From Patescibacteria group bacterium (GTDB taxonomy: Bacteria > Patescibacteriota > Patescibacteriia > UBA1558 > UBA10009), in NCBI GenBank assembly GCA_041662565.1, contig JBAZSE010000003.1, positions 108,636-172,635 on the forward strand: DNA of 64,000 nucleotides. Reading direction: 5' to 3'. Positions 1 to 38,643 of this stretch are shown here, one piece after another; within the stretch, counting starts at the first letter, position 1; every line of letters starts with the position of its first letter. Position numbers and translations under genes: made by a program. Under the pieces are notes generated by a model. It saw only the letters and a program-made list of their open reading frames with translations. It made no database searches and had not been told where the DNA came from.

Positions 1-912
1 TACAAAAACAGGTCCGGAGGAAGTAAGTTTAACCAAGATAGCCAAAACCAAAAAAATCGGGGATAAAATTATCAAACCCGCAACGGATAACAGCAAATCA
101 ACCAATCTTTTTAAAATCCTGCCCCAACCGTCAAGCCGAGTGGGCCTGACTTCAATTAAAGGGATTCCCGAAATCGTGCTTAAATCAAAATTAATCAATT
201 TGGTATCCAATAAAGAAGCAACATATTTGTAATTAAGTTGGTGCTCGGTGCAAAAATTAACCAAATCATTTTTTTGGATATTATCAAGCCCCGGATCTGC
301 CAAAATCAGATCATCCAACTTCTCTTGTTTGGCTAAAACCTCCAATGACATTTTGGTTTCCTGGTCAAAAAAAGGATAGCTGGCCATTATTTTAAAACCG
401 TGGCCGGGATTATCCGTAAACGACTTGTTGATTTCGGCCGCGTTTTTATTAGCTCCGATAATAACCACTTGCCTTAAGCCCAATCCTTTTTTATAAAAAA
501 GTTTTTTAACGTAAAAAACAATCAAGCGTTCCGCAGTCACAATCACTACACTTAACAGCCAGCTAGTGATAATAATCAATCTGGAAGAAAAAAGCTGGAA
601 ATTAAAAAAGAAAGCCACCACAATAATCAGGGTCGCTGCGCTACAGGCAATAAAAATTTTAAAGAAATTGGCGAAAAAACTTTGTCGTTTAATGGAATAA
701 AGACCGGAAACGGCAAAAACTGCCAGCCAAGCCAAAGCCGCTACTGCTAAAATCTTAAAAAAACTTTCGTAGGAAAGTTCAAAAACTACCGGTCTAATTT
801 CGGTTACAAAGGATTCAAATCGCAATAAATAGGCCAACGTTCCAGCCAGCAATAAAGCCAAATAATCCAATGGCACCAGTATGGCCGCAAAAGCCAATTC
901 CAACTTTTTCAT
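1..912 (-). CDS. Polyprenyl-phosphate sugar phosphotransferase (bacterial sugar transferase family), partial. The C-terminus runs off the window start.
   Basis: Manual minus-strand translation from the ATG at 910-912 gives MKKLELAFAAILVPLDYLALLLAGTLAYLLRF... and later ...RLVDLLLSVAGLIILSPIFLVLAILVKLTSSGPVF. These are hallmark WbaP/bacterial-sugar-transferase motifs. It is not in the ORF track because there is no stop inside the window. Confidence 0.7.
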   Translation of the reverse strand, partial: MKKLELAFAAILVPLDYLALLLAGTLAYLLRFESFVTEIRPVVFELSYESFFKILAVAALAWLAVFAVSGLYSIKRQSFFANFFKIFIACSAATLIIVVAFFFNFQLFSSRLIIITSWLLSVVIVTAERLIVFYVKKLFYKKGLGLRQVVIIGANKNAAEINKSFTDNPGHGFKIMASYPFFDQETKMSLEVLAKQEKLDDLILADPGLDNIQKNDLVNFCTEHQLNYKYVASLLDTKLINFDLSTISGIPLIEVRPTRLDGWGRILKRLVDLLLSVAGLIILSPIFLVLAILVKLTSSGPVFV

Positions 913-1035: not shown

Positions 1036-1065
1036 CAAAAAAGGCGGGCTATTAACCCACCTTCT
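1036..1065 (-). terminator. Intrinsic terminator following rnpB
   Basis: Minus strand reads aaggtgggTTAATAGcccgcctt followed by TTTTGTAT. The stem is 8 bp with one mismatch. Confidence 0.5.
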
Positions 1066-1067
1066 CT

Positions 1068-1468
1068 GATGCTTACTTAAGTTAATAAGCCGAATTCTGT
1101 ATCCAGACTTTTACATCTGGACAGCGATCATCTATCTAGAGCCGTAAATTGCTCTACGGCTTCGAGCTCTCAACCCGTCGAGCTTAGCTCGACCTATGCG
1201 AGATTGCACCGGATAGAGTTTGCCTCTTTTTCCTTGTCGCCAAGGAAACGAGCCAAGTCATTACTTAGCTATTTCACCCTTATTCTAAAACCTTGCGGTT
1301 TTAGAAAGGAATATTTTCTGTTGCGCTTGTCCTGATTCGGCGGTTACCCGCCTAATCGGTTGGCGTTACCAATTATCCTCCGAGTTAAACTCGGAAAAAC
1401 GGTGTTCGGACTTTCCTCCCCGATTTTGCAAAGCAAACACCGGGGCGATCACCTAAACTCAAATAAGT
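1068..1468 (-). ncRNA. rnpB: RNase P RNA, bacterial type A
   Basis: The minus strand contains GGAGGAAAGTCCGAACACC (P4 region consensus GGAAAGTCCGGGC), AAGGGTGAAATAGCTAAGTAATG (consensus GGGTGAAAnGGTGcGGTAAGAGC) and ACAGAATTCGGCTTAT (consensus ACAGAACCCGGCTTA). A P1 helix forms between 1456-1467 and 1072-1083. It lies in a ~590-nt ORF-free gap. A sigma70 promoter (-35 TTGACA 1498-1503, 17-nt spacer, -10 TATTAT 1475-1480) and a downstream hairpin with a T-tract (1036-1065) fit an independent transcript. Confidence 0.85.
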
Positions 1469-1499
1469 AAAATGATAATAACAGATATTAAACAAATTG

Positions 1500-2606
1500 T
1501 CAACTATTTAAAATTGAAAGGGTTTCTGTGGCGCATTTTTCCCAAGAAAAATCTTGAACCCGACGCATACCTTTGGCAATTAAATCATCGCGCCAGACCT
1601 GATCTTCGTTGATTTTAATCATGCTTTTGGCAAAGGCCTCGACATCATGGGTATTATGCATCACGCCCGCATTACCGATAATTTCGGGTAATGAACCGGC
1701 ATTGCTGGCAATTACCGGTACTCCGCAAGCCATAGCTTCCAAGGCCGGCAAGCCAAATCCTTCATAAATTGAGGGAAACAAAAATGCCCTAGCACCAGAC
1801 ATTAAAACCGGCAACTGCTCTAAATCCAGCCAACCGATTTTTTTAATTTCATCACGATAAGGTGAAGCTTGAATTTCGGCATCAATATCCTGTTGTCCGG
1901 GCTCGGGAGAGCCGGCTAAAACCAAGTTAAAAGGCCGTTTTTGCTTTTCTCTAAAACAATTATAAATCCTAATCAAACCGACGATATTTTTCCTTAATGC
2001 CAAGCGACCGATAAAAACAAAATAAGGATAATGTATTTTTAACGTTTGCAGTAATTCGGCCACTGCTTCTTTAGGCGCCGGGCGCCAACGCTGATTGTTA
2101 ATGCCCAAGTGCACCACTTTAATCAAATCCGGCTTAAGACCGTAGTATTCCACTAATTCATTTTTAGTGAATTGAGAAACGGCAATAATTGTATCGGCCA
2201 TTTTAATCATGCGCCCGGCGCCTTGCTTAAGAGATTGCAGATCCCAGGCAGTATAAGTTTCGGGATATTTTTCATAACCGATATCGTGCCAGGTAATAAT
2301 ATTTTTATGTCCGCCGATAAAAGGAAAAGTATGCGATGGCACGAATAAAACATCCGGTTTGTGAGTAACCATTTCCCAAGTTAGGCGGCCTAGAGTCCAC
2401 AATTTTTTAAACGGCCACTCCAAAACTTTTTCCTTAAAATTAGACGATCGTGGAATTAATGCACCTGTTAATTTTTGCGGGGTATATAAAAGATATTGGT
2501 TTTTTTTATCCAATTTGAAAAACTGATCCAGCAAATGGTAAGCGTACCATTCTACTCCGCTTTTATGAGTTAAGTTTGCTCTGGAAACGTCGATGCCGAT
2601 AAGCAT
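1500..2606 (-). CDS. Glycosyltransferase family 4 (GT1 fold)
   Basis: Motif EGFGLPALEAMACGVPVIASNAGSLPEII is typical of retaining GT4 enzymes. 368 aa. Confidence 0.75.
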   Translation of the reverse strand: MLIGIDVSRANLTHKSGVEWYAYHLLDQFFKLDKKNQYLLYTPQKLTGALIPRSSNFKEKVLEWPFKKLWTLGRLTWEMVTHKPDVLFVPSHTFPFIGGHKNIITWHDIGYEKYPETYTAWDLQSLKQGAGRMIKMADTIIAVSQFTKNELVEYYGLKPDLIKVVHLGINNQRWRPAPKEAVAELLQTLKIHYPYFVFIGRLALRKNIVGLIRIYNCFREKQKRPFNLVLAGSPEPGQQDIDAEIQASPYRDEIKKIGWLDLEQLPVLMSGARAFLFPSIYEGFGLPALEAMACGVPVIASNAGSLPEIIGNAGVMHNTHDVEAFAKSMIKINEDQVWRDDLIAKGMRRVQDFSWEKCATETLSILNS

Positions 2607-2681: not shown

Positions 2682-3695
2682 TTACTTAGTAAATAAAATA
2701 CTGCGCTTATATGACTCTAAGTTATCCAAAGCAATCCCGGTACCCTTGGCCACGCAGAGCAAAGCATCATCAGCCACGTAGGCGGGAACGCCTGTGGCTT
2801 GCGAAAGCAAGTTGGCCATATTTCTTAAAAGAGAAGAGCCACCTGTTAAAACCATGCCTTTATCCATTACATCGGCCGAAAGTTCGGGCGGGGTTTTAAA
2901 AAGCACGGATTTAACGGCTGCAATAATACCTTGAAGTTCGTTTTGCAGGGCCTCGGTTACATCGTCGGAATTAACTTCAATCGTCCTGGGCAAACCGGAA
3001 ATCATATCCCGGCCCCTGATATTCATTTTTAATTTTTCTTCATCATCCAAATACATCGCGGAACCGATCTGGATTTTTATCTGTTCGGCCGTGCTTTCGC
3101 CAATAGCTAAACCGTATTTTTTTCGGATAAATTCACCAATCGCCGCATCAAACTTGGTGCCGCCGATTCTTATGGAAGTATTAGCCACAATGCCGCCTAA
3201 AGAAATAACGGCAATTTCGGAAGTACCGCCACCCATATCCACAATCATATGCCCGGAAGCCGAACCAATAGGGATATTAGCGCCAATGGCTGCAGCAATC
3301 GGTTCTTTAATGATATAGGCCGCTTTGGCTCCAGCCGCTACCGTAGCATCAATAACCGCTCTTTTTTCGGTGGAAGTTATGCCAGCCGGAACAGCAATCA
3401 TTACTTCGGGCCTAAATAGTTTAACTCCCCCAATGGCCTTGTTAATAAAATATCTTAACATGCTTTCGGTGGTTTTATAATCGGCAATCACGCCATCCCT
3501 TAACGGCCTTAAAGCAATTATAGTATCTGGGGTTCGGCCCAGCATTTCTTTAGCTTCTTCACCCACGGCTAAAACTTTTTTATCAATAACCGAAATAGCC
3601 ACAACCGAGGGTTCATTAATAATAATGCCCCTTTTGGGTATATGGACCAGGGTATAAGTAGTACCTAAATCAATGCCTATTTTCTTGGTAAACAT
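2682..3695 (-). CDS. mreB: MreB/Mbl-like actin homologue (second paralog)
   Basis: N-terminal IGIDLGTTYTLV phosphate-1 motif and DMGGGTSEIAVIS phosphate-2 motif. 337 aa. Paralog of the gene at 7573-8616. Confidence 0.8.
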   Translation of the reverse strand: MFTKKIGIDLGTTYTLVHIPKRGIIINEPSVVAISVIDKKVLAVGEEAKEMLGRTPDTIIALRPLRDGVIADYKTTESMLRYFINKAIGGVKLFRPEVMIAVPAGITSTEKRAVIDATVAAGAKAAYIIKEPIAAAIGANIPIGSASGHMIVDMGGGTSEIAVISLGGIVANTSIRIGGTKFDAAIGEFIRKKYGLAIGESTAEQIKIQIGSAMYLDDEEKLKMNIRGRDMISGLPRTIEVNSDDVTEALQNELQGIIAAVKSVLFKTPPELSADVMDKGMVLTGGSSLLRNMANLLSQATGVPAYVADDALLCVAKGTGIALDNLESYKRSILFTK

Positions 3696-4356: not shown

Positions 4357-6270
4357 CTATTTTCGCCTATTGGTAATATACCAGTTTAAGACATCATAGG
4401 CAATAGGCACGGCAATATCGGTGCCATCGCCACCATGCTCGATTAAAACAGTTAACACCAGTTCGGGATTATTGGCAGGCAAATATGCGGTAAACCAAGA
4501 GTGAGGATTGCCGTTTGAGACCTCGGCAGTACCGGTTTTTCCCGCCACAGGCACGCTTAAAGTTGCCAAACGTCTTCCGCTGCCTCTTTCCACTGTGGCC
4601 CGCAAACCTTCATTAACTATGGTAAAAGAGGTTTGATCGGCCTTAATCTGGGTGATAATTTTTGGCTCAATTACGGTTTGGGCGCCTGTTTCAGGATTAA
4701 TGATTTTTTCTACCAAGGAGGGCTGATATAAAGTTCCGCCATTGGCAATGGCGCTGGTGTATAAAGAAACCTGCAAAGGTGTGGCCAACAAATCCCCCTG
4801 GCCGATAGCTAAATGCAAAGTATCGCCTGGGTACCAGGCCTCTTCTTTTGTTTTTAATTTCCATTCCTTGCTAGGTAAAAAGCCGGGCCGCTCGCCGGCT
4901 ATATCAATGCCGGTAATTTTACCTAAGCCAAAAGAAGAAAAATATGAAAGTATTTTATCCAAACCCAAACCGCGGTGCCCGTCAAAATTTTCTAATGCCA
5001 AATAATAAAAAAAGGTGTTAACTGATTCGGCTAAGGCCTTAATAACATTGGTTTGACCGTGCCCGCCCGCTTTCCAATCCGGAAAAAACCATTTATCATA
5101 CCAAACCCCGCCCGTACTGCTAACTTGGGTATTTTTATCAATCACCCTTTCAGCCAAGCCGGCTAAACTCATTATCAGCTTAATGGTGGAACCGGTAGGA
5201 TATTCGCCGGTAATAACTCTGTTAAATAAAGGATTAAGCGGATTATTAAGCAATTGCTGATAACTTTCTTGGCTTATGCCTCGGCTAAATTGATTGCTAT
5301 CATAAGTTGGCCACGAAACAAATGCCCGAATTTTACCCGATCTTGGATCAAGTGCAACTACTGCCCCGGATTTAACCGGAGCCAAACGATTTAAAGCTAA
5401 AGTAATGCTTTGCTGTAAACCCAAATCCAGCCCTAAAATCAAATTACTTCCGTTTTGGGGCGCTTCTTTGGCAATAACTTTTTTTTCCCTACCAAAAGCA
5501 TCAACCTCAATTTGCCGTTTGCCAAATACTCCACGCAAAAATTCCTGATAACTTTCTTCCAAACCCAATCTACCAATTTTTTCGGTTAGTTGGTAACCCA
5601 AGGCCAGATATTTGTCTTTTTCTTCTTTAGTAATTCTACTGGTAAAACCCAATAAGTGGGCCAAAGAACTGTTTTCGAGATATTTTCTTTGAGGGTCTAT
5701 GATGATTTTTAATGAATTAATGCCATTTAACTGCAACATCAAACTAATGGCCTCATCGTATAATAAATTTTCCTTAACCAACACGGGCACATAACCGCCT
5801 GTTTTAAGCAATTTGGTTATTTCGATTTCAGCCAAACCGATATTTTGAAAAATTTTTTCTATTTTTTCTTTTTCAGTCGAACTTATTTGGCTGACTGCCG
5901 GCTGGAAAAACAATGAAAAAGTGCCTACATTTTCCACCAACGGAACCCCGAAGCGATCAAAAATAATGCCTCTGGAAGGCGGGATTAATTCCAAACGCAA
6001 ACGGTTGCCTTCGGCAATCGCCCTAAATTCCCCTCCTTTGATAAATTGTAAATAAAACAAGCGCCCGAACAAGCTTAAAAAAAGAAAACAAAAAATTATA
6101 AAAAAAAGATTTAACTTGCTTTGGGTTACAATCCTGCCAAGCCACAAAGAACTTTCGCCGACCAAAAAACTTTCGCTAACTTCTTTGGCGTTGCTAAAAT
6201 TTTCCATGCGGCCGATCTTTTTATCGCTTGCCCGGCCAGGAATAACAAATGGATCATGAGATTTCCACAT
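4357..6270 (-). CDS. mrdA: Penicillin-binding protein 2 (peptidoglycan D,D-transpeptidase)
   Basis: N-terminal TM segment. Transpeptidase motifs STIK (SxxK) and KTGTAE (KTG). Sits downstream of mreBCD. Confidence 0.8.
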   Translation of the reverse strand: MWKSHDPFVIPGRASDKKIGRMENFSNAKEVSESFLVGESSLWLGRIVTQSKLNLFFIIFCFLFLSLFGRLFYLQFIKGGEFRAIAEGNRLRLELIPPSRGIIFDRFGVPLVENVGTFSLFFQPAVSQISSTEKEKIEKIFQNIGLAEIEITKLLKTGGYVPVLVKENLLYDEAISLMLQLNGINSLKIIIDPQRKYLENSSLAHLLGFTSRITKEEKDKYLALGYQLTEKIGRLGLEESYQEFLRGVFGKRQIEVDAFGREKKVIAKEAPQNGSNLILGLDLGLQQSITLALNRLAPVKSGAVVALDPRSGKIRAFVSWPTYDSNQFSRGISQESYQQLLNNPLNPLFNRVITGEYPTGSTIKLIMSLAGLAERVIDKNTQVSSTGGVWYDKWFFPDWKAGGHGQTNVIKALAESVNTFFYYLALENFDGHRGLGLDKILSYFSSFGLGKITGIDIAGERPGFLPSKEWKLKTKEEAWYPGDTLHLAIGQGDLLATPLQVSLYTSAIANGGTLYQPSLVEKIINPETGAQTVIEPKIITQIKADQTSFTIVNEGLRATVERGSGRRLATLSVPVAGKTGTAEVSNGNPHSWFTAYLPANNPELVLTVLIEHGGDGTDIAVPIAYDVLNWYITNRRK

Positions 6271-6759: not shown

Positions 6760-7548
6760 TTATTTTTGCAGAACCTTAATCACTGTTAAATTGCGCAAGT
6801 TTTGGTAGCTAAAAGGAGGTTCGATTCTGGCTTGCTTAAAAATCTGCCCGACTTTTTGGTCGGTTTTGGAAACATTGCCTACCAAAAGGCCTCGCGGCAC
6901 CATTTCTTCCAAACCGGAGGTAATAACTATTTCCCCATCCGTAACAACTTGATCCTGAGAAATTAAATCAATCACCAGGCTGTTGCCGGCCTGTCCGGTT
7001 AATAAGCCATTGGTGTTATTGGATTCTCCAAAACTAATAGCTAATTGGCTCGCTGTATCGGTTAATAATCTGCCATAAGAGCGATTTTCTTCCACTTGGG
7101 CTATCTTGCCTATAACTATCCCCTGGTTGACAGTCAGTGGCATGCCTATTTGCAAACCCACATTAGCCCCGGCATTTAAAATGACCATATTGTCGTTTAA
7201 CGGCAAACGGCCGATGATGCCGACAATCTGGTAATCAAATTTTGATAGTTGTAAAAAATTCAGTTCTTTCCTTAAAGCGTCATTTTCCGCGGCCAAGCCG
7301 GCTAATTTGATATAATCCACGCTTAAGCGGGAAAGTTCTTCTTTTAATCTTAAATTTTCTTTGGCTTGAAATTGATAATTTTTTAAATTGCCCAAATATT
7401 CGCCTTGCTGATAAAATTTCTCAGCCACCGGTGAAAATAATCTTTGCAGCCAAATTTTGGGATACTTTAACCAACCAAAATAATTAAAAAAAATCAGGAG
7501 TAAAATAACTCCCCCGAATAACCAAGCATGTGGTCGGCTCTTTTTCAT
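6760..7548 (-). CDS. mreC: Rod shape-determining protein MreC
   Basis: N-terminal TM, a coiled-coil segment (LKEELSRLSVDYIKLAGLAAENDALRKEL), then a beta-rich C-terminus. Lies between mreB and mreD. Confidence 0.75.
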   Translation of the reverse strand: MKKSRPHAWLFGGVILLLIFFNYFGWLKYPKIWLQRLFSPVAEKFYQQGEYLGNLKNYQFQAKENLRLKEELSRLSVDYIKLAGLAAENDALRKELNFLQLSKFDYQIVGIIGRLPLNDNMVILNAGANVGLQIGMPLTVNQGIVIGKIAQVEENRSYGRLLTDTASQLAISFGESNNTNGLLTGQAGNSLVIDLISQDQVVTDGEIVITSGLEEMVPRGLLVGNVSKTDQKVGQIFKQARIEPPFSYQNLRNLTVIKVLQK

Positions 7549-7572: not shown

Positions 7573-8616
7573 TCAATCCGTAGCCGAAGGCAATAAAACT
7601 TCCTGCAGATTATCCATATCTTCCAAAATAATGCCCGTGCCTCTTACCACCGCGGTTAAAGGATCATCAACAATATGCACCGGCACTCGGGTTTCTTGAG
7701 CAATTAAGGCATCCAAACCTTTTAAATTAGCGCCACCGCCCGAAAGCAACATTCCCCTGGTATAAATATCAGCTACCAATTCCGGCGGGGTTTTTTCCAA
7801 AGTATCCCTAACTGCTTCTACAATCTGCCTTACCGATCTGATAATCGCCTCTCTGATCTGCAAACTGTTAACCGCCACTTCTTTAGGCAAACCGGAAATC
7901 AAATCACGACCCCGCATGACTGTTTCTTCTTTTTCGTTAGTAAAGCCGGAAACCGAACCGATCTTTATTTTAATTTCTTCAGCAGTTTTTTGCCCTAACA
8001 AAAGATTAAAATTCTCGCGGGCATACTGAATAATATTATCATCAAGCTCCTGGCCGGCAATGGTTAATGAATTAAAGGTCACCACACCGCCCAAAGAAAT
8101 AACCGCCACCTCGGTAGTGCCGCCACCCAGATCCACCATCATAAAACCACTGGGCTCTTGGATAGGAACTCGAGAGCCAATGGCAGCTGCTAAGGGCTGT
8201 TCCACTAAATAAACCTCCTTGGCTCCAGCAGATCTAGTTGCATCTTCCACGGCCTTTCTTTCCACTTCGGTAACGTTTAACGGTATGCCAATCACCACTC
8301 GCGGTCTGGGCGATAAGCTAAAATTTTCTTGATGGATTTTTTTTAAAAAATGACTGATCATTTTTTCGGTTATTTCAAAATCCGAAATAACGCCATTGGT
8401 TAAGGGCTTGGAAATTAAAATATGACCGGGAGTTTTACCCACCATGCGCTTGGCATCTTCGCCAATGGATATAATTTGGTTATTGCGGGTATTAATGGCT
8501 ACCACCGAGGGTTCATTAATAACAATACCCTTATCTTTAACGTAAACCAAAGTATTGGTGGTTCCTAAATCAATACCGATATCCTGCGAAAATTTTCCAA
8601 AAAATTTATTAAACAT
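7573..8616 (-). CDS. mreB: Rod shape-determining protein MreB
   Basis: [14 protein letters not shown] and MMVDLGGGTTEVAVISLGG actin-fold ATPase motifs. 347 aa. Confidence 0.9.
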   Translation of the reverse strand: MFNKFFGKFSQDIGIDLGTTNTLVYVKDKGIVINEPSVVAINTRNNQIISIGEDAKRMVGKTPGHILISKPLTNGVISDFEITEKMISHFLKKIHQENFSLSPRPRVVIGIPLNVTEVERKAVEDATRSAGAKEVYLVEQPLAAAIGSRVPIQEPSGFMMVDLGGGTTEVAVISLGGVVTFNSLTIAGQELDDNIIQYARENFNLLLGQKTAEEIKIKIGSVSGFTNEKEETVMRGRDLISGLPKEVAVNSLQIREAIIRSVRQIVEAVRDTLEKTPPELVADIYTRGMLLSGGGANLKGLDALIAQETRVPVHIVDDPLTAVVRGTGIILEDMDNLQEVLLPSATD

Positions 8617-18779: not shown

Positions 18780-20411
18780 TTATTCTTTTGAATACATTTC
18801 ATCTTTCTTTTCTTTCAAAAAAGCGATCCATTCTTCAATAACTTCCAAAAATATCTTTAATGGCGCTTCAATGATGAAATCCAAGATAAAAACAAAAACG
18901 TTGATTTTGGAAAACTTTTCCGAAAGCCAATGACCGGCTTTTAAAAAAGGCAAAGCAAAAAGGTTGACCAAAAAAACCAAAGGATTTTCTTTTTTATCAA
19001 TGACGGTTAAATCCTTAACTTTCATTCTCATTTTAATGCCAAAAAAGCTGACTAATGATAAAAACAACAAAAAGATCAGCTTACTAAAAATATTAAATTT
19101 CAATAAATTCAACAAATACAACAAAACGCTAAATGACAAATAAAATAAAGCCAAATAAAGAGCGTAAAATACAATTACAAAAAATTTACTTCGCTTGATT
19201 ACCCCGCCAATGGTAGTTTTAACCGATGTTGCCAAGGGCTGTTCCACCACTTCCTGAGCCAAAGCCACTACCCGATTGGTATTTTTTTTGGAAGGAATCC
19301 TGATAAATATTCCCAGCAAAAAAATCAAAAAAGGCGGGAACAGGGCGTTAATGGCCAAAGGCAAATACATAACTTTATGGGCAATGTAATAATCATAAGG
19401 AAATTCCAAGATCAAAGCCAAAACCATTTTAGTTAAAAACAGATAAATTACCACCCGCACAATGCTGCGCCTAAGCTTTGTCCTGGTGTTTTTATACATT
19501 TTATCGCAAGCGGAACGAATGGCCAGCTCCAGTTGAGCGGGATTTTTAAACAACCGATCCGCGTCATCAGGATTTTCGGAAATAATATCCCGCAGGACAT
19601 AAAAAACAAAAGCGGATTTTTTAAAGAAACGATAAAGCTTTTCGGCCAAATAATATTTTCTTCTTTTTTCAATTTCCTTCTTTAAATTGTTGATTTTTTT
19701 GGCTACCGGCAATAAATCAACGGGCTGAACGTTTTTCCAATCGGGATAAAAATAACGCAACAACTTATAATCCATCATTACTTCGTCGGATTTTACCAAG
19801 GCCCGATAAATTGCCAGATAAATATACAAATCCTTTTCCAAATCGCTTGAGCTAGGATCATTAATTGCCACTACCGGGCGCATCACCTTAAACATGTACT
19901 CGACCAATGCCTGATTGGCCAGCGGTGGCATTAAGCATTCTTCAATTTCGCAAGAACAAAGCCCGAGTAGCCATTTAAACAATTTAGCCCCGTTATCACT
20001 GCTTTTTTTGGAACCGCTTAAATTATACAGGGTTAAATATTTGGTAATGATCTTATCAACTTCTTCGGTTTTGCTAAAAGGAATAAGATTGTTTTCCAAA
20101 TAACCGGCACGGATCAGTTCTTTAACCAGGCCAAGCGATAAATCTTCAGTCGTTACCTTAATCATCAAGCGCCTTTGCAAAATCCTAAAGATCGCCGCCT
20201 TTCTCATTAAGTGATCCTCTTTATAATCAATGGCGTTGCGGATTTTCTCGTAAATAAAAGCAACCCTAGAGACAAAACTGTCTACTTGGATTCTGGAGAT
20301 TTCTTCTGTTGAGGAGTAAAAAACTTTCGGATCGGACCGTTTAATTTGCTCAATAAACCTTCTGGCTGATGAAGTTATGGGCATAATATTATGTTCTACA
20401 TTATACAACAA
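18780..20411 (-). CDS. Hypothetical polytopic membrane protein (soluble N-terminal half, multi-TM C-terminal half)
   Basis: 543-aa ORF with several hydrophobic helices in the C-terminal 250 aa. No recognised motif. Confidence 0.45.
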   Translation of the reverse strand: MLYNVEHNIMPITSSARRFIEQIKRSDPKVFYSSTEEISRIQVDSFVSRVAFIYEKIRNAIDYKEDHLMRKAAIFRILQRRLMIKVTTEDLSLGLVKELIRAGYLENNLIPFSKTEEVDKIITKYLTLYNLSGSKKSSDNGAKLFKWLLGLCSCEIEECLMPPLANQALVEYMFKVMRPVVAINDPSSSDLEKDLYIYLAIYRALVKSDEVMMDYKLLRYFYPDWKNVQPVDLLPVAKKINNLKKEIEKRRKYYLAEKLYRFFKKSAFVFYVLRDIISENPDDADRLFKNPAQLELAIRSACDKMYKNTRTKLRRSIVRVVIYLFLTKMVLALILEFPYDYYIAHKVMYLPLAINALFPPFLIFLLGIFIRIPSKKNTNRVVALAQEVVEQPLATSVKTTIGGVIKRSKFFVIVFYALYLALFYLSFSVLLYLLNLLKFNIFSKLIFLLFLSLVSFFGIKMRMKVKDLTVIDKKENPLVFLVNLFALPFLKAGHWLSEKFSKINVFVFILDFIIEAPLKIFLEVIEEWIAFLKEKKDEMYSKE

Positions 20412-20435
20412 ATATCACGATTTGGCAAAAATAAT

Positions 20436-22703
20436 CTATCCAGATTTATTGTCAAAAAGTTCCGACCAACTTTTCCAACCTTTATCTTTATACGTTCTGT
20501 TAGGATGAGTGGGCCAGTTTAGTTCAGGATTAGCTTTTAAATATGCTTTATAGGAAAGCACGTTTTTAAAACTCATTTTTTTTACCTCTATTTCAAATTG
20601 TGAAAAACTCAAAAAAATTTTACTTTCTCTTTTAAATAATTTCGGCCAACCTTGCCAACCTTTGTCATGATAATAAATTTCTGGTTGAGACGGCCAACTA
20701 CTTTTTGAATTTTCTTTTCTATACCTATAATAATCCTTTTCGCTATCCAATTTCCTACCATCTGGAAAAGTAGTAGCACCCACTTCTAATTGAAATTCAT
20801 CATAATTAAGTAATTTTTCTCTACCAAATAATTTATACCAATCTTCCCAGCCCTTATTTTTATAAAATTGATTTGGATTCGAAGGCCAATTCAGCTCAGG
20901 ATGGTTAATTAAATATTCAGCATATTCTTCCAAACTTTTTAAACCAGCATCTCTGACTGCGATTTCAAAATCCGAATAGATTAAAAATTTTTTCCTTTCT
21001 TTATTAAAAAGCTTTAACCAGCTTTCCCAACCTTTGAATTTATAATGTAAGTCAGGCCTTACTGGCCAGTTTAACTCAGAGTGATTTTTAACGTAATTTT
21101 TGTAATCATCTACTGTTAATAAACCAGCAAATCTTACAGATTGCACGAAGTCATTAAATGTCAATTCCTTTTTTAGATCACTATCTATTCTTCCTTTTTC
21201 AATAAATTGCGATAAAGACCAGACCTCTTGAGGATCCACAATTACTCGCAAATTTTCTATCTGAATATCTGGATTAGAAACGTAACCATGACCAGCGCCC
21301 TTCTTCTCAAAATCTGACCTAACTTCTTTTGGCTCAAGCTCACTAGCCCTCGCGATTTCCGAAAAAGTTATACCCGGCTGACTAGCTTTTTCGTCCACAA
21401 AATCAACAATGTAAGACCATTTTTCTTGGTTATTGGGGTCAAGGCGCAAAACCCGTCCAGCCCGCTGTTCCGCAACCACCCTGGAAAGAGTTGGTTGTAA
21501 ATTTAAGGCCACGCTGGCTTTTGGTTCGTCAAAACCTTCTACCAAAATACGCACATTGCATAAAACCTTTATTTTACCTGATCTAAAATCTTCAATTATC
21601 TCTTTTCTTCTCTCCGGAGAAGTATTTGCTAATAAAACAGCCGAGGAAATGTTTTGCGCCATAAACATTTGTTCCATTTCCTTAGCATGATCTGTTCCAC
21701 CGCAATAAACAATGGCGCTTTGCCCTTCAAACATTTGTTGATACAGCTGGACGGCGGATAAATTACGAGCATGATTATTAACGACCTGCTTCAAAGATGC
21801 TTCGTCGTAATCATCCCCTTTTATTTTGACTTCGGAAAGATCGGTTGAGGTATAAGCCAAAATCGCCTTAAAGCGATTTAGCAGACCTTCTTCCACAGCT
21901 TCTTTAATAGACATCTCATGGATTTTATTGCTCAAAACCTCGCTCACGCCTTTTTCATAGGAATATTGAGGCGTAGCCGTAAAACCCAATTTAACGCAAT
22001 CAAAAGAAGCTAAAGCGTTTTGAGTTTTTTCGCCAATGGCTTTATGGGCTTCATCTAAAATAAGCAATTTAAAATCTTCGGGCTTAAAAGTGCCGTCAGC
22101 CACTCTTTGAACTAATGATTGATAAGTGGTAATTGTAACCTGCTTAGCTAAATCTTTATTTTCTTGAAAATAACTGCCATGTTCCAAATCCGTAAACTCA
22201 TCCAGTTTTGATCCTGTTTGGCCAACTAAAACTTTGGACGGCACAACAATCAAAGTTTTTACACCCATTGCATCTACCACCTGGGAAAATAAAACGGTTT
22301 TACCTACGCCGGTGGGCAATTTAACATAGCCCTCTTTTTGGCCTTCTTCTAAAGAATCCCTAATATCCTCAAAAACCGTAAATTGCCTATCGCGTAAAAC
22401 CCGGTTATCTTCTTGGCTTTTATGTTTTTCAATGTAAACATCTAGGTTATTTAAAACCCCTATCCACTCTTGCATATCATCCAATTCTTCATTGTTAATT
22501 TCAGCAGAGCCCCTATTATATCTTAATAGCTTTAAATAAATCTGATAACGCTCCGGAAATCTGGTTTTAATTTCTTCAATTGGTAACTTAAAAAGATCCT
22601 CTTGTTCCAAAGAGGGCTGCAATTTTTCACCTAAAAGTTCGCTGGAATCAGATACTTGCTGTTCAAGCTGTTCGGGCTGTTTTGGTTGAAACCATTTTTC
22701 CAT
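20436..22703 (-). CDS. SF2 DEAD/DEAH-box helicase (type III restriction Res-subunit-like core) with four C-terminal ~60-aa tandem repeats
   Basis: Motif I LPTGVGKTVL. Motif II ILDEAHKAIG. Motif VI QRAGRVLR. The C-terminus carries four repeats of the form NWPxxPxxxYKxKGWxxWxxLF. Confidence 0.75.
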   Translation of the reverse strand: MEKWFQPKQPEQLEQQVSDSSELLGEKLQPSLEQEDLFKLPIEEIKTRFPERYQIYLKLLRYNRGSAEINNEELDDMQEWIGVLNNLDVYIEKHKSQEDNRVLRDRQFTVFEDIRDSLEEGQKEGYVKLPTGVGKTVLFSQVVDAMGVKTLIVVPSKVLVGQTGSKLDEFTDLEHGSYFQENKDLAKQVTITTYQSLVQRVADGTFKPEDFKLLILDEAHKAIGEKTQNALASFDCVKLGFTATPQYSYEKGVSEVLSNKIHEMSIKEAVEEGLLNRFKAILAYTSTDLSEVKIKGDDYDEASLKQVVNNHARNLSAVQLYQQMFEGQSAIVYCGGTDHAKEMEQMFMAQNISSAVLLANTSPERRKEIIEDFRSGKIKVLCNVRILVEGFDEPKASVALNLQPTLSRVVAEQRAGRVLRLDPNNQEKWSYIVDFVDEKASQPGITFSEIARASELEPKEVRSDFEKKGAGHGYVSNPDIQIENLRVIVDPQEVWSLSQFIEKGRIDSDLKKELTFNDFVQSVRFAGLLTVDDYKNYVKNHSELNWPVRPDLHYKFKGWESWLKLFNKERKKFLIYSDFEIAVRDAGLKSLEEYAEYLINHPELNWPSNPNQFYKNKGWEDWYKLFGREKLLNYDEFQLEVGATTFPDGRKLDSEKDYYRYRKENSKSSWPSQPEIYYHDKGWQGWPKLFKRESKIFLSFSQFEIEVKKMSFKNVLSYKAYLKANPELNWPTHPNRTYKDKGWKSWSELFDNKSG

Positions 22704-27385: not shown

Positions 27386-28474
27386 ATGCCCAATCAAAAT
27401 TTTAAAGCAATATACTTTACTGATTATAAAGAAATAAACCCTAACGGGAAAAGTTTTAATCTTGCCTTTGGAGATAGACATAAAGATTTGTATAAAAAAA
27501 TAGCGAATTTAGCCAGTAATGAAATAAGAAATTTACTGGGCACAAATTCTTTTATTGAATTAGAACAACGGGCTAAAAATGAAGGCCTACAAATCAATAC
27601 CTATTGTCTTTGGTATCTATTTAAAAATTTATACAAAGAAAATGTGGTGATTTTGCCAAAAGCTAAGAAAGAAAAAAATATTGATCAGTTTATCAATCAG
27701 GTTATTCAAGGTGATTGTCTGGAAGTAATGAAAGAAATTCCTTCAAAATCAATAGATATGATTTTATGCGATCTTCCTTATGGCACAACTCAAAATAATT
27801 GGGATAGCATTATCCCCTTGGATCAGCTTTGGAACCATTATGAACGCATAATAAAAGACAGAGGGGTAATCGTGTTAACAGCTCAAGGACTTTTCACCGC
27901 GAGTTTAATGATTTCTAATCCGAAAATTTTCAAATATAAAATTACTTGGGTTAAATCTAAGCCAACTAATTTTCTTAATGCTAAAAAACAACCTTTAAGA
28001 AAACATGAAGATGTTTGTATTTTTTATAAAAACCAACCTTTTTATAACCCGCAAATGACTCTTGGCGAACCTTATAATAAAGGTTTTCGCAAAGATCAAT
28101 TTACCGGAAGTTATGGTGAATTTAAAACCGTTGAGGTTAAAAGCAACGGCGAGAGGTATCCTACCGATGTTATTTATTTTAAAACCGCTGAAAGTGAAGG
28201 GCAAGTTTATCACCCGACCCAAAAACCAGTAGAATTAGGTAGATATTTAATTAAGACATTTACTGAAAAGGGGGATATTGTTTTAGACAATACTTGCGGT
28301 AGTGGTAGCTTCCTTGTTTCAGCAGTTTTAGAGGGTAGAAAATTTATTGGGATAGAAAAAAATGAAGAAGTATACCTTCATAAAAAACAAAAGGTGGATT
28401 ATATTGAGATCTGCAGAGAAAGAATTAAAGAGGCAGAGCGAGTTTATAAAGCTTCTTCCAGTAAACTATTTTAA
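27386..28474 (+). CDS. Site-specific DNA methyltransferase (N6-adenine or N4-cytosine), beta class
   Basis: Catalytic motif IV D-L-P-Y (ILCDLPYGTT) precedes SAM motif I (DNTCGSGSFLVSAVLEGRKFIGIE). This order defines beta-class amino-MTases. The region is AT-rich. A TATAAT lies 6 nt before the ATG. Confidence 0.8.
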   Translation: MPNQNFKAIYFTDYKEINPNGKSFNLAFGDRHKDLYKKIANLASNEIRNLLGTNSFIELEQRAKNEGLQINTYCLWYLFKNLYKENVVILPKAKKEKNIDQFINQVIQGDCLEVMKEIPSKSIDMILCDLPYGTTQNNWDSIIPLDQLWNHYERIIKDRGVIVLTAQGLFTASLMISNPKIFKYKITWVKSKPTNFLNAKKQPLRKHEDVCIFYKNQPFYNPQMTLGEPYNKGFRKDQFTGSYGEFKTVEVKSNGERYPTDVIYFKTAESEGQVYHPTQKPVELGRYLIKTFTEKGDIVLDNTCGSGSFLVSAVLEGRKFIGIEKNEEVYLHKKQKVDYIEICRERIKEAERVYKASSSKLF

Positions 28475-29409
28475 ATACCGCTATAGAGCTCCTCTTTAAG
28501 AATATCTTTAGCTCTTGCTAATTCAGCGTCTGTTAAGTGACCTTTTTCTTTGAGCCATTTTAGAAGATGAAAATATTGATTGGGGTGTAAAATTGGTTTA
28601 ACAATTTTCTCTAAACCAGTTTCATTTTTAATGAATTCCAAATGTTCTTGATTAAGAACCCCTCTACCTATAAGATCGTAGGTAATTCTTATAGCGTCAA
28701 CAAATGTTAGGTTTAAATCGCCTTGTTTTACTCTGTCTTTTTCAACATCGGGCATTTCAATACTTAGTAAATCTTCAATTCCCGATAAACCATTAAGATT
28801 GCGGTTATAAAGCTCAATTTCTTGACCTCTGTAGGTAAACCAAGTTCTGCCCTGTTCAGTTAAAGAACCGCGGGGCAAATAAACTCCTTCTCTGGCAACT
28901 CTTTCTTTAGAGACCCAACCGCAAACGTATAGAATCCATTTCCTCTGTCTTCTGGTGCCCGGCAAAGAACTTTTTTTCTTGCCGGGATTTTCTAAATGAG
29001 TTAATAAGTAAATATCGGCATCAAGCTGATCGTCGTTGATTTGACGAGCGAAAAAATTATGCTTTGCTTCTCTGGGAATACCATCGTCACTTTCATAAAG
29101 TTCTTTGAATGGGAGATTGCCACCACGACACTTAACATCAACCTTAATTCCAGAAGGCAATAAAATATCATAACCTAGCGGATGATTTTCTGGATTAATT
29201 TCCGGCATGCCTAGTTTATTTCTGACAACTATTTCTGCTAAAGCGCCAAAGCCCTGTTCCTCTATGTTTCCACGTTCAGCGCCAGTTCTATTTTGATTTT
29301 GCTCAATATATTCTGATGCTTTTTGGCGTAAGGCAAAACCTTCTTCACCTATTAATTTTATTACGATTGGTGTCGGATTCTTGTATTGATACATATCATT
29401 ATTAAACAA
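28471..29409 (-). CDS. Putative type II restriction endonuclease (PD-(D/E)xK fold), convergent with the MTase
   Basis: GYDILLPSGIKVDVKC matches the D-x(n)-(D/E)xK catalytic signature. Adjacent to and convergent with the DNA MTase. 312 aa. Confidence 0.5.
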   Translation of the reverse strand: MFNNDMYQYKNPTPIVIKLIGEEGFALRQKASEYIEQNQNRTGAERGNIEEQGFGALAEIVVRNKLGMPEINPENHPLGYDILLPSGIKVDVKCRGGNLPFKELYESDDGIPREAKHNFFARQINDDQLDADIYLLTHLENPGKKKSSLPGTRRQRKWILYVCGWVSKERVAREGVYLPRGSLTEQGRTWFTYRGQEIELYNRNLNGLSGIEDLLSIEMPDVEKDRVKQGDLNLTFVDAIRITYDLIGRGVLNQEHLEFIKNETGLEKIVKPILHPNQYFHLLKWLKEKGHLTDAELARAKDILKEELYSGI

Positions 29410-29419
29410 TTAAATAAAC

Positions 29420-30265
29420 CTATTTATTGCCATTGAGCTTGCCGTGCACTTTTTGAATCGCCTCACGGGCTTTGGTCGCTTTATCAGCCTTCTCTTTCTG
29501 TATAATTTTCTCGTCGAGAATCTGCTCAATACCTATTTTGATCGTCTCGAAATATTGTAGGCACTCATCCTCGGTAAGCTCATGTATTCCTTTGCTCAAG
29601 ATTGCATACAGCACTTTATTTTCTACGAGAAAATCAGGAAGGTTACTTTTAAGCATGCCTATTTTTTCGTCCATGCTTACTAGTTTATAATTATCCTCAT
29701 TAAATCCCTCTTCTTTTAACGAAAGCTCATGAGCCTCTTCAATAAGATTTTCAAAAACGCGACGAAGGTATACAAACGAACCAATCCCCACTCCGTGAGC
29801 AGCGACTCCTACGCCTCTTGTTAATTCTTTATATTGTTCTTCACCAAGGATCTTCCTATATTTTCCAACTTGTGGAATCTGAAAGTCTGCGACAGAAGGA
29901 AATTGTCCAACTTTTTGAAATTTATTTGTACCAGCAGCCGTAAAATAATAAGATCTATAACAATGACTATGATTATGCGCGCAATGCCAATTAAATTCTT
30001 CAAGCTTATTTTCTATTTGCGAAAGCCATTGATCAAATACCCACCTTGAGGAAGAATTAGATTTAAACACACTCTCTTTTTTACACCAGATACAATAAGC
30101 GTCAATCGTACCAGAAAAAGTTGTTAACTCATAAATTTTTTCTTTAACTTCCTTGATAAGTAAATTATAGGAACGATAAAGAGGCATTTCCAAATGAAAT
30201 ATTTTTGGTAATTCTAGGTATGGGTCATTTTGGATATTAATACTTTGTTCTTCTGAATTTTCCAT
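29420..30265 (-). CDS. Hypothetical Zn-binding protein in the R-M islet
   Basis: CxxC...NWHCAHNHSHC Cys/His cluster. Low-GC island context next to the tRNA. No confident family. Confidence 0.4.
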   Translation of the reverse strand: MENSEEQSINIQNDPYLELPKIFHLEMPLYRSYNLLIKEVKEKIYELTTFSGTIDAYCIWCKKESVFKSNSSSRWVFDQWLSQIENKLEEFNWHCAHNHSHCYRSYYFTAAGTNKFQKVGQFPSVADFQIPQVGKYRKILGEEQYKELTRGVGVAAHGVGIGSFVYLRRVFENLIEEAHELSLKEEGFNEDNYKLVSMDEKIGMLKSNLPDFLVENKVLYAILSKGIHELTEDECLQYFETIKIGIEQILDEKIIQKEKADKATKAREAIQKVHGKLNGNK

Positions 30266-30482: not shown

Positions 30483-30556
30483 TTTGGGAAGATTTTTGAT
30501 GGCTCGGGGACAGGGAGTCGAACCCCGATTGACAGGACCAGAACCTGCTGTCCTAC
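30483..30556 (-). tRNA. tRNA-Gln (anticodon CTG)
   Basis: Manual cloverleaf. Acceptor stem TCGGGGA/TCCCCGA with the U1:A72 pair and G73 discriminator typical of tRNA-Gln. D-arm GTC-TAATGGTAG-GAC. Anticodon stem GCAGG/CCTGT with loop TTCTGGT (U33, CTG, purine 37). T-arm CGGGG-TTCGACT-CCCTG. CCA is encoded. Upstream promoter: -35 TTGACG 30601-30606, 17-nt spacer, -10 TATTAT 30578-30583. Confidence 0.9.
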
Positions 30557-30677
30557 CATTAGACGATCCCCGAATACAATGTTTATTGATTAGTATAATA
30601 TTACAAAAAGACCTTATCGTCAAGATAATTTCTTGTTTTTTGAATTTAATGTTATAATATATCAATCATCAACATCT

Positions 30678-35317: not shown

Positions 35318-37888
35318 TTATTTACTGACCAATCGCATTCTGGCTAAAATTTCTGCTTCTACGGTTGCCCTATCGCGACCATATTTAAGGCGCGAAAGCT
35401 GTTTAACTTTTTCTACCATTGCTTTATCACCAGGCAACGGGGCAAACGGGGCAAAATTAAAAGCCCGAGCGTTTTGGCTATCAACCAACAGCTTAACGTA
35501 GGCATTAAAACGGGGAATATTGATTAAATCGTATTCGTTAAACACCGGCGCAAACTGCTTGGCCACCAATTCCGCATCATCAGGCCCGATACGAAAAGAG
35601 ACCATGGTGCCCACATTGCCAAAAACCGAATCTCTAATGGAAGTATCATTGCCTTTTTTTACCAATTGGCCGATGTACTGATGGGCAATAGTTAAACACA
35701 GTTTGTATTTTCTGGCTTCGGATAAAATAATGGCAATGGAATCCGTGATAAAATTCTGGAATTCATCAATATACAGATAAAAATTGGTTCGTTCGTTTTC
35801 CGGCACATCCACGCGCGAGAGCGCCGACATTAACAATTTGCCTACTACAACCATACCCAGTAAATTAGCGCTTAAATCACCAATTTTGCCTTTAGCCAGT
35901 TTAATAAGTAAAACTTTACGGCCATCCATAACTTCCCTAAAATTAAACGAAGATTTCTGTTGGGAAATAATTGGCCTAAGTAAATCCGAAGAAACAAAAG
36001 GCGTCAATTTGCTCGTTATGTAAGGCACCATATTGGCGAGTGCTGCTTCACCGCCGGCTTTTTCGGCTTCTTTTTCCCAAAAATCCTTAACCACCGGGTT
36101 AACACATTTGGATAATTTATATTTTCTAAAATTGGCATCGGCCAAAACCTTGGGCACTTCCAACAAAGTTGAACCGGATTCGGTATCTTCCATCATTAAC
36201 AGCATGGCGTTGCGCATATACTGTTCAAACATTGGGCCGCCAGTGGCTTTTAAATCATACAGTTTGTCAAAAATATTTATCATCTCGTTGATGACAAAAG
36301 TTTTTTGTTCCGGGTTGGTAAATTCCAACATATTCAAGGCAATCGGCCGCTCAATATCCGAAGGATCGAACAAAATAACATCATCAGCCCGCTCTGGCGG
36401 AATATGTTCTATAACAGCATCAACCAAATCGCCGTGCGGATCAATTACGCAAACGCCCTCGCCGTTTTTAATATCCTGAATTATCAGGTTGGCTTGAAGT
36501 ACGGATTTACCCGTACCGGATTTACCAATGATATACATGTGGCGCTGGCGATCATCGGTTTTAATGCGCACCGGAGTTTTAACTCCGCGATAAGTGTTTT
36601 CACCCAATAAAATACCTTCGGTTCCCATATTTAAAGGCGGTGCAGCTTTGCGGGCTTCTAGCCAATAAATATTCGGAGTTTCGGAAGTGGGTAGAGGTAA
36701 GTGCCATAAGCTGGCCATTTCTTCGGCATTTAAAATAACATTGTATTTGCGGATAAAAAAACGATGAATAAAATCGGAAACCAAGGTATTGATTCTGACA
36801 AATTTGGCTTTTTTAAAACCATTGCCGTATTCATAAACATTAAATTGGGAAAAACCATTTAAAATATTGGCCAAATAACTATTGGCTAAATCTTTGGTAG
36901 CCGCCGAAACAACCACTCTGATGTTAACATCCATGCCGGCTTTGCTGGTTTTTTCTTCAATACCTTTAACCGTTTCGCTTTCCATGGGCGATAAGCGATG
37001 CGCTGATTCGCTAGCGGTCAAATCATTTTTCTTTTTGGAAATAGAAATAAAAAACTTAAACACTCCACCGATAAAGGCAAAAAGCTTATCAAAAATATTG
37101 CCAAAGCCGGCTTTTCTTAAGGCCCCGGTTAATGTTTTGCCCTGTTGCATTTCGCGAGCCACGGTTACGCCCCGCCGATGCCATCTTTTATGCGAAGACC
37201 TGGCAACAAATTGAATAGCCGCTTCCCCACCGCCGGAAATATTTGCCAAAGCATTGGTTAAAGAATTAAGCGGATCGCTTTCCATTTTTTTGTAGGTTTT
37301 AATCGGAAAAATAAAATCCCTACCAAATCTTAAATATGCTCCGGTAATTACACCTTGGGGCGAAAAAATATTATAATCCTCCACTTCTTCCACTAAAGCA
37401 TAAGGCCAAGCCGAATGGATTTGCTGGGCCAAGGTTTCCTGCAAATAATCGGGTACGCTTAAATAAAAATAAATCTTGCCTTTGGATAATACAATTTCTG
37501 CCGAAAAATGATCTGTTCGGCCAAAAAGCCAATGTAATGGCCCCCGCTGGGCGCGCAGGCCGCCCAAAACCGAAAATAAATTTTCGGCCACGCCGATTTC
37601 TTGTTGCAGAGTTTGCGGAGTTTCTTCTTTATCCACTGCACCTTTGGGCTTAAATTTTTCTTTGGGCAATGAAACGATTAATATTTTTTGTGAAAGCCCT
37701 GCCGGCAAACGATTATGCCTTTCTAAAAACTTCCTGACAATCAATAAGCCAATCCAAATAATCAAAACAATACCTACGGCAATTAATAAATTTGCCAGCC
37801 AGGGATTAATTACAAAAAAATTAACTTGAGGGTTCGGCCCCAAACCGGAATCAATACTAAATTCAATAGCCAATAAATTTACCAGCAT
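35318..37888 (-). CDS. Membrane-anchored P-loop ATPase, VirD4/TraG-like coupling-protein or DUF87/AAA_10 family
   Basis: Two N-terminal TM helices. Walker A IIGKSGTGKSVL followed by VIDPHGD. Walker B LYIDEFQNF. 856 aa. Confidence 0.5.
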   Translation of the reverse strand: MLVNLLAIEFSIDSGLGPNPQVNFFVINPWLANLLIAVGIVLIIWIGLLIVRKFLERHNRLPAGLSQKILIVSLPKEKFKPKGAVDKEETPQTLQQEIGVAENLFSVLGGLRAQRGPLHWLFGRTDHFSAEIVLSKGKIYFYLSVPDYLQETLAQQIHSAWPYALVEEVEDYNIFSPQGVITGAYLRFGRDFIFPIKTYKKMESDPLNSLTNALANISGGGEAAIQFVARSSHKRWHRRGVTVAREMQQGKTLTGALRKAGFGNIFDKLFAFIGGVFKFFISISKKKNDLTASESAHRLSPMESETVKGIEEKTSKAGMDVNIRVVVSAATKDLANSYLANILNGFSQFNVYEYGNGFKKAKFVRINTLVSDFIHRFFIRKYNVILNAEEMASLWHLPLPTSETPNIYWLEARKAAPPLNMGTEGILLGENTYRGVKTPVRIKTDDRQRHMYIIGKSGTGKSVLQANLIIQDIKNGEGVCVIDPHGDLVDAVIEHIPPERADDVILFDPSDIERPIALNMLEFTNPEQKTFVINEMINIFDKLYDLKATGGPMFEQYMRNAMLLMMEDTESGSTLLEVPKVLADANFRKYKLSKCVNPVVKDFWEKEAEKAGGEAALANMVPYITSKLTPFVSSDLLRPIISQQKSSFNFREVMDGRKVLLIKLAKGKIGDLSANLLGMVVVGKLLMSALSRVDVPENERTNFYLYIDEFQNFITDSIAIILSEARKYKLCLTIAHQYIGQLVKKGNDTSIRDSVFGNVGTMVSFRIGPDDAELVAKQFAPVFNEYDLINIPRFNAYVKLLVDSQNARAFNFAPFAPLPGDKAMVEKVKQLSRLKYGRDRATVEAEILARMRLVSK

Positions 37889-37890
37889 GA

Positions 37891-38421
37891 TTATAATTTA
37901 TCCTTATCCATTTTCTTTTTAAAAGCCAAAATCCGATCGGCTTTAATTTTGGCTTCTTGTTCCAAAAAAAACTTATTTAAGCCCGGAATAATTTTAAGCC
38001 AATCCAAGATAAGGCGGAAAATCTCTTTAACTTTAACCTTGGCTGATTTAAGAAGAAGCGCTATCTTGGAGGCAGTTTCTTCTCCAACTTCTCTGAATTG
38101 CAATTGTTTTTCCGGAGTAAGTTTTAAATATTCTTGTTCCAACCCTTCGGCTAAAATGCCTTCTACCTGATAAAAAACCGGTGTTTTTACGGCGGGTGTA
38201 ATATCGTTAACTGATGGCAAGCTTTGAATAGCCGGATTGGTAAATTCGGATTTTTCCTGAACTTCGGTTGGCTTTTCTAACTGATTTGCCGGTAATTCCA
38301 CCGCCTGTTCCACAGTTTTTTCTACCTCAACTGTTTTTTTGCTTTCTGCTTGGCGATTAGGCAGATCTTTAAGTCCGGCTAAAAAACTTTCAATTTTTTT
38401 ATTAATTTGTTCCGGTTGCAT
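37891..38421 (-). CDS. Hypothetical acidic protein
   Basis: 176-aa ORF immediately upstream of, and co-directional with, the ATPase gene. Confidence 0.35.
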   Translation of the reverse strand: MQPEQINKKIESFLAGLKDLPNRQAESKKTVEVEKTVEQAVELPANQLEKPTEVQEKSEFTNPAIQSLPSVNDITPAVKTPVFYQVEGILAEGLEQEYLKLTPEKQLQFREVGEETASKIALLLKSAKVKVKEIFRLILDWLKIIPGLNKFFLEQEAKIKADRILAFKKKMDKDKL

Positions 38422-38640: not shown

Positions 38641-38643
38641 AAA

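Follow-up and report, generated by a model that had tools for sequence, protein, structure and literature searches.

A functional rnpB gene almost certainly occupies positions 1070-1467 on the minus strand of the 64-kb stretch of DNA analysed here (contig JBAZSE010000003.1; hereafter the window, meaning the whole stretch), which comes from a Patescibacteria (candidate phyla radiation, CPR) bacterium close to Candidatus Komeilibacteria. As part of the same, nearly certain claim, which is drawn from the sequence, its product would be the RNA subunit that provides catalysis in RNase P, which cleaves the 5' leader off precursor tRNAs. Indeed, a scan of the window against all of Rfam returned RF00010 (bacterial RNase P class A) at 1070-1465 (minus strand) with 184.2 bits and E = 6e-58, over model positions 1-367 of 367, the gathering score of this model being 100 bits. 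RF00010 was also the best-scoring model within its clan, and because of the covariance-model E value a chance resemblance is excluded. The original prediction had placed an RNase P RNA in this gap between two genes and had called for a search with RF00010; the full-length match bears it out by a wide margin. As for the extent of the gene, the Rfam match begins at 1465, and the pairing of the first paired region (P1) reaches 1467. Furthermore, the whole RNA folds well below shuffled versions of itself (minimum free energy z = -8.4), and the only other Rfam match in the window is a tRNA at 30503-30573. The gene adds a member, from an uncultured lineage, to a known family and is not a new kind of element: it is an ordinary essential gene, which any pipeline running Rfam calls at default thresholds. 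Its identification leaves the understanding of RNase P itself unchanged, and its value is one of annotation, in that an essential RNA gene is placed in the genome and an otherwise empty gap of 587 nucleotides (nt) is explained.

The anatomy of the RNA agrees with this identification. Conserved regions (CR) I to V were all found, as GGAGGAAAGUCC (CR-I), ACAGAAA (CR-II), GGGUGAAA (CR-III) and ACAGAA..CGGCUUA (CR-IV/V). The three conserved blocks on which the original prediction was built are likewise all present on the minus strand, namely GGAGGAAAGTCCGAACACC at 1401-1419, TAAGGGTGAAAT at 1271-1282, which is followed by the P13 hairpin (1251-1270) with GTAA in its loop, and ACAGAATTCGGCTTA at 1086-1100. 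One of them had been mislabelled: GGGTGAAA...GTAA corresponds to the joining region J12/13 (CR-III) plus the P13 loop, not to the J11/12-P12 region. The two ends of the RNA are joined by the 12-base-pair (bp) P1 that had been proposed, in which CUUAUUUGAGUU (1456-1467) pairs with AACUUAAGUAAG (1072-1083) through 12 standard pairs, 3 of them G-U. Helices P1 to P4 form, as an earlier suggestion to check this part of the fold had anticipated, and the long-range P4 brings together AAG-[U bulge]-CCGAA (1405-1413) and UUCGGCUU (1087-1094) in 8 pairs, with the characteristic U bulged out. Compared with the Rfam consensus of this helix, CCGGg/CCCGG, the pairing here is CCGAA/UUCGG and thus amounts to two compensatory changes. 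A direct check showed that P1, P2, P4, P5, P7, P15, P16 and P19 all pair as expected. The parts of the RNA, from its 5' to its 3' end, are as follows.

1070-1467, minus strand: rnpB, bacterial class A RNase P RNA (Rfam match 1070-1465; the P1 pairing defines 1072-1467)
1447-1454 with 1123-1129, minus strand: P2, plus one further pair
1418-1445, minus strand: P3 hairpin
1401-1419, minus strand: CR-I, GGAGGAAAGUCCGAACACC, made up of J3/4, the P4 5' strand (1405-1413, with bulged U) and the P5 5' strand CACC
within the RNA, minus strand: P5, CACC with GGUG
within the RNA, minus strand: P7, GGAUA with UAUCC
1360-1372, minus strand: P8
1331-1359, minus strand: P9, extended, with a GUAA loop
1308-1321, minus strand: J11/12 (CR-II), ACAGAAAAUAUUCC, placed by the Rfam alignment and a direct check
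1229-1307, minus strand: specificity-domain modules P12, J12/13, P13 and P14
1283-1307, minus strand: P12, with compensatory changes among 11 relatives
1271-1282, minus strand: J12/13 (CR-III), UAAGGGUGAAAU, placed by the Rfam alignment and a direct check
1251-1270, minus strand: P13, with compensatory changes among the same 11
1229-1249, minus strand: P14, likewise with compensatory changes
1168-1203, minus strand: P15-P16 arm, with the GGU motif in its internal loop and P16 capped by a 3-nt loop
1172-1177, minus strand: CGGGUU, the GGU motif, in the P15/P16 internal loop
1140-1161, minus strand: P18, with a GCAA tetraloop
1102-1121, minus strand: P19-like hairpin UCCAGAU-GUAAAA-GUCUGGA, between the 3' strands of P2 and P4
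1086-1100, minus strand: CR-IV/CR-V, ACAGAAUUCGGCUUA, including the P4 3' strand (1087-1094)

Relatives of the gene were retrieved by one scan of species-representative genomes for GAGGAAAGTCCGAACACC, 20-45 unspecified bases and then GGTAACGCC, which gave 97 loci; the scan admits only an exact GAACACC with 20-45 nt between P5 and P8 and covers one P4/P5 sequence variant. An exact look-up of the GT4 protein encoded next to the gene matched Logan metagenome contigs only, which agree with the window at 100% identity over 2.8 kb, and the placement of the organism therefore comes from the genome scan. The records that name a lineage are all Patescibacteria/CPR (among them Komeilibacteria, Paceibacterota, Buchananbacteria, Magasanikbacteria, Doudnabacteria, Giovannonibacteria and others), apart from one automatically labelled third-party annotation (TPA) batch. 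RF00010 recognizes the ten nearest loci, 10/10, with 153-218 bits. The window sequence and these ten relatives (11 sequences) were aligned with MAFFT and folded by RNAalifold, independently of Rfam, and this recovered P1, P2, P3, P5, P7, P8, P9, P12-P16, P18 and the P19-like helix. In 76 of the 110 RNAalifold pairs, pairing is kept with both sides changed in at least one sequence. Compensatory changes fall in P1, P2, P3, P7, P8 and P9, P5 being invariant, and in the P19-like helix columns 434-438 covary with columns 538-542. P10 and P11, which the Rfam alignment places, were not recovered by RNAalifold on the 11 sequences. The P4 variant holds across a wider set, as a UUCGG 3' strand accompanies the CCGAA 5' strand in 92 of 92 full-length relatives.

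These compensatory changes across orthologues at the same genomic position, together with the full-model match, the intact conserved regions and P4 and the conserved expression signals described below, make it extremely improbable that the locus is a decayed or duplicated remnant of rnpB, or a chance resemblance, in place of a working gene. No positive point in favour of a remnant emerged from the analysis, which covers the window. Some observations do weigh against a functional, canonical rnpB: the P16/P17 region is reduced from 18 model positions to 2, with P17 and P6 absent; Ribonuclease_P (PF00825, RnpA) has no match among the 49 open reading frames (ORFs) of the window scanned with Pfam; and both transcript ends are deduced from sequence signals.

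Some features of the retrieved loci deserve mention beside this comparison. Large lineage-specific insertions sit in the peripheral helices of otherwise alike RNAs: the site of the P19-like helix is expanded by ~100 nt in locus L054 (about 4740-4860) and by ~45 nt in L080, and P12 is expanded by ~90 nt in L019 (about 330-450). The TPA batch carries the labels "uncultured Gammaproteobacteria" or "Saccharibacteria", and its rnpB genes group with Paceibacter. Within it, loci recorded as "uncultured Gammaproteobacteria bacterium" TPA_asm (among them L026, L067 and L069, the last a single 716-kb contig) show an rnpB architecture nearly the same as that of Candidatus Paceibacter (L046). The taxonomic labels of these records look wrong, and the sequences are probably from Patescibacteria.

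The gene lies in a gap of 587 nt (913-1499) between two genes encoded on the same strand.

1500-2606, minus strand: upstream neighbour, glycosyltransferase family 4 (GT4) protein of 368 amino acids (aa), with Glycos_transf_1 and Glyco_transf_4 domains
1-912, minus strand: downstream neighbour, sugar transferase with CoA_binding_3 and Bac_transf domains, running off the window start

The gap had been described as free of ORFs, and on both strands we found nothing in it beyond mechanical ORFs, 30-43 aa long. A coding role for the gap was rejected, as these all lie inside the region that the RNA explains fully. The closest loci in a blastn comparison were L053 and L054, both from metagenome-assembled genomes (MAGs) of Candidatus Komeilibacteria (Parcubacteria group), and L080, from a Patescibacteria MAG, with ~70% nucleotide identity to the window. 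The gene order in L053 and L054 is that of the window, namely sugar transferase, rnpB, GT4, MreB, GreA and penicillin-binding protein (PBP), and the match of L080 extends to MreB only. The rod-shape cluster beside rnpB (2682-3695, 4357-6270, 6760-7548 and 7573-8616, all minus strand) is complete in the window: two MreB paralogues flank GreA and PBP2, and MreC lies between PBP2 and the second MreB. The first MreB of this cluster is syntenic in L053, L054 and L080.

The original prediction had also endowed the RNA with its own promoter and terminator, and this claim has been strengthened by the finding of equivalents in L053, L054 and L080. The signals in the window are the following.

1498-1503, minus strand: -35 hexamer TTGACA, which contains the TGA stop (1502-1500) of the GT4 gene
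1475-1483, minus strand: extended -10 element TG-T-TATTAT, with TATTAT at 1475-1480, 17 nt after the -35 box
1037-1067, minus strand: intrinsic-terminator-like hairpin with A-tract, G+C-rich stem and T-tract, beginning 5 nt after P1

TTGACA-17 nt-TATTAT, with 11 of 12 consensus matches, was the single promoter-like site in a scan of 700-1900. The predicted hexamers, their 17-nt spacer and the overlap of the -35 box with the stop codon of the upstream gene are all there, and a TG lies one base upstream of the -10 box. The end of the -10 box is 7 nt from the first P1 base (1467) and 9 nt from Rfam model position 1, and transcription likely starts, on this evidence, at A1468 or at C1467, the first base of P1. 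The corresponding sites in the relatives are TTGACT-17-TATGAT (L053), TTGACT-17-TATCCT (L054) and TTGACA-17-TATACT (L080); the extended TG and the exact 9-nt distance to model position 1 are alike in all three and in the window. In an ungapped alignment of the four genes TTGAC and TG.TAT are invariant and the adjacent bases vary.

At the other end, the hairpin and T-tract that had been foreseen just past the 3' end are present directly after P1. In a fold of 1028-1072, AGAGAAGGUGGGU-UAA-UAGCCCGCCUUUUUU has a free energy of -23.8 kcal/mol (z = -6.9), and TTTTTT then follows. A simple terminator scan of 700-1900 did not report this terminator, probably because some of the T-tract is paired with the A-rich 5' flank, and the negative of the scanner was set aside in favour of the folding result. 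A hairpin with A and T runs directly follows P1 in all four of the syntenic genes (4/4), with -14 to -26 kcal/mol. In E. coli, transcription of rnpB begins at what is the mature 5' end, and the 3' terminator hairpin after P1 is trimmed; the layout here is alike, with a promoter at the 5' end of the RNA and a terminator hairpin after P1.

As the upstream genes are on the same strand and the stretch from the GT4 stop (1500) to P1 (1467) has no terminator, the RNA could also be made mainly by read-through from the GT4/MreB operon, with its 5' end produced by processing and the promoter-like site incidental. We regard this as quite unlikely, since the promoter parts hold their distance to the RNA across four genes of only ~70% identity, while the surrounding bases drift, and since the site with 11 of 12 matches is the sole promoter-like site in 1.2 kb. 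Judged from the signals that are present in the sequence and kept in the relatives, rnpB is a separate transcription unit, and the locus shows cleanly how a promoter and a terminator of CPR bacteria are kept from species to species.

In class A RNase P, the P4 pseudoknot and nucleotides of CR-I, CR-IV and CR-V form the metal-binding active site, the tRNA T-arm is recognized by the specificity domain P7-P14, to which CR-II and CR-III belong, the substrate's 3' CCA is paired by the GGU of the P15/P16 internal loop, and the small RnpA protein binds the leader. By analogy, the RNA of the window would use P4 with CR-I, CR-IV and CR-V as its active site, would bind the tRNA T-arm through its P7-P14 domain and would pair its GGU motif (CGGGUU) with the tRNA 3' CCA, and an RnpA partner encoded outside the window would bind the leader. 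The RNA itself would be transcribed from the extended -10, sigma-70-type promoter inside the end of the GT4 gene, starting at the mature 5' end or 1 nt before it. Transcription would stop at the intrinsic terminator after P1, whose hairpin would then be trimmed, as in E. coli. The only tRNA gene of the window, for tRNA-Gln (CTG) at 30500-30573 (minus strand), encodes its 3' CCA, and this agrees with the fact that the RNase P RNA has kept its GGU motif.

Where the RNA departs from class A is in the P6/P16/P17 region. As P16 is capped directly by a 3-nt loop, P17 and the P6 pseudoknot cannot form, and P17 was found in none of the 61 related P15 arms that could be delimited. In addition, the RNA carries an insertion relative to the Rfam consensus.

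1379-1395, minus strand: extra hairpin UCCGAG-UUUAA-CUCGGA, between P5 and P7

This hairpin lies directly 3' of P5, which is the position of P5.1 in class B and which in class A is taken by the single-stranded 5' strand of P6. It is present with at least 4 bp in 97 of 98 RNAs (the window and the 97 loci), with 92 distinct stem sequences and loops that are often GNRA or UUCG; since the scan selects for the insertion, neither the frequency of the hairpin in the phylum nor its absence elsewhere can be derived from this count. In the retrieved Patescibacteria rnpB genes the P5-P7 hairpin always occurs without P17/P6. The P5-P8 spacers fold better than their shuffles, with means of -9.4 and -5.4 kcal/mol, respectively (Wilcoxon p = 2e-17). 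For covariation, a small covariance model of the P4-P8 segment was used to align 96 loci (94 distinct sequences), the alignment being fitted to the model. In this alignment 6 of 6 hairpin pairs change on both sides, and the covariation score is 0.37 as compared with 0.12 in shuffles (0 of 500 reach 0.37) and 0.02-0.07 after a shift of the 3' partners by 1-3 columns. On these comparisons, the hairpin at the P5.1 position is itself well supported. A loop-loop contact between the hairpin and P16 in replacement of P6 was considered and dropped, the P16 loop having 3 nt and the hairpin loops not being conserved (GCAA, GUAA, GAAA, UUCG, UUA and others).

This combination bears on the class of the RNA. 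Catalogues list P5.1 only in class B and describe class A by the presence of P6/P16/P17 and the absence of P5.1 (PMC7191817; PMC2858038 Table 3). Of the P6/P16/P17 module as defined in PMC7191817, the window RNA keeps P16, and the single-stranded P6 partner is gone; where the class A description has no P5.1 (PMC7191817, PMC2858038 Table 3), the hairpin 1379-1395 stands at that position. One could argue from this that the RNA belongs to a separate class of CPR RNase P RNAs and not to class A, a P5.1-like hairpin having taken the place of the P6/P16-P17 module, as in class B. The covariation over 94 distinct sequences, the occurrence of the hairpin in all RNAs but one, the absence of P17 and P6, the presence of a P19-like helix and the wording of the catalogues would all fit such a class. 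Nonetheless, we consider a separate class unlikely: RF00010 is the best model of its clan and lies far above threshold, P13, P14 and P18 are present together with a class A-style P15/P16 internal loop bearing GGU, P10.1 and P15.1 are absent and J15/18 has 6 nt. Moreover, peripheral variation on a class A core is well known, and losses of P16/P17 in CPR have been published.

The assignment to class A is in keeping with a comparison to its known members (RF00010; E. coli M1 RNA and Thermotoga maritima). Common to these and to the window RNA are CR-I to CR-V, the P4 pseudoknot with its bulged U, P1-P3, P5, P7-P12, P13, P14, the P15/P16 loop with GGU and a P18 with a GNRA loop. The window RNA differs from them in that it lacks P17 and hence P6, with P16 capped by a 3-nt loop, in that a hairpin of 6-7 bp is inserted between P5 and P7, in its P19-like hairpin between the 3' strands of P2 and P4, and in a P4 that reads CCGAA/UUCGG in place of CCGGG/CCCGG. 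With class B (RF00011; Bacillus subtilis) it shares the hairpin after P5, P19 and the lack of P6/P17. However, class B has no P13 or P14 and possesses P10.1, P15.1 and P15.2, whereas the window RNA has P13 and P14 and lacks P10.1 and P15.1. Membership in class B was rejected on the presence of P13 and P14, the lack of P10.1 and P15.1 and the win of RF00010 within the clan. Furthermore, with a J15/18 of only 6 nt there is no room for P15.1, and the class B contact between L5.1 and L15.1 (PMC5066622) therefore has no partner in the window RNA. The resemblance of the hairpin to class B P5.1 is positional and probably convergent.

Lui, Nielsen and Arkin 2021 (PMC8172020) report that P13, P14, P16 and P17 are missing from many CPR RNase P RNAs, which had to be refolded by hand, and that the GGU motif is absent in 23 of their 35 genomes. 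The window RNA comes from the same phylum-level group, and its missing P17 fits this picture. It is among the less reduced of these RNAs, as it keeps P12, P13, P14, P16, P18 and GGU, and it passes the Rfam threshold without relaxation. PMC8172020 makes no mention of a hairpin at the P5.1 position. More widely, apart from PMC8172020 no paper on RNase P RNA structure in CPR lineages turned up, and no published mention of a P5-P7 hairpin in CPR RNase P RNA was found in a literature coverage that is incomplete, so that novelty is unproven.

As far as the compared sequences indicate, the hairpin and the accompanying loss of P17/P6 amount to a modest structural variant at the level of the lineage, which those who work on RNase P or build covariance models may wish to note. 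It is possible, if rather doubtful, that Patescibacteria RNase P RNAs of this kind make up an uncatalogued structural subtype, in which a class A core with P13, P14 and P18 has P17/P6 exchanged for the P5-P7 hairpin. If true, such a subtype would be a second, independent replacement of P6 by a hairpin in cis, otherwise listed for class B only. Should the hairpin be phylum-wide, it would add an instance in which the catalytic domain was remodelled by convergence. Current covariance models fail to detect some CPR RNase P RNAs (PMC8172020), and the hairpin would then deserve inclusion in them.

According to Pfam scans of its ORFs, the rest of the window is ordinary chromosomal housekeeping DNA. 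On the minus strand, a VirD4/TraG-like coupling ATPase (35318-37888) precedes several small ORFs and two very large ones, of 2591 aa (40169-47944) and 917 aa (47995-50748), none of which has a Pfam match. The region 35318-50748 (minus strand) may be a secretion or surface-protein block of a kind common in CPR genomes. An N4/N6 DNA methyltransferase (27386-28474, plus strand) is one of two sizeable plus-strand genes in the window; it adjoins two ORFs without Pfam matches, and the G+C content is 0.36, against ~0.40, at about 20000-22000 and 28000-30000. The methyltransferase region may be a small acquired island resembling a restriction-modification system.

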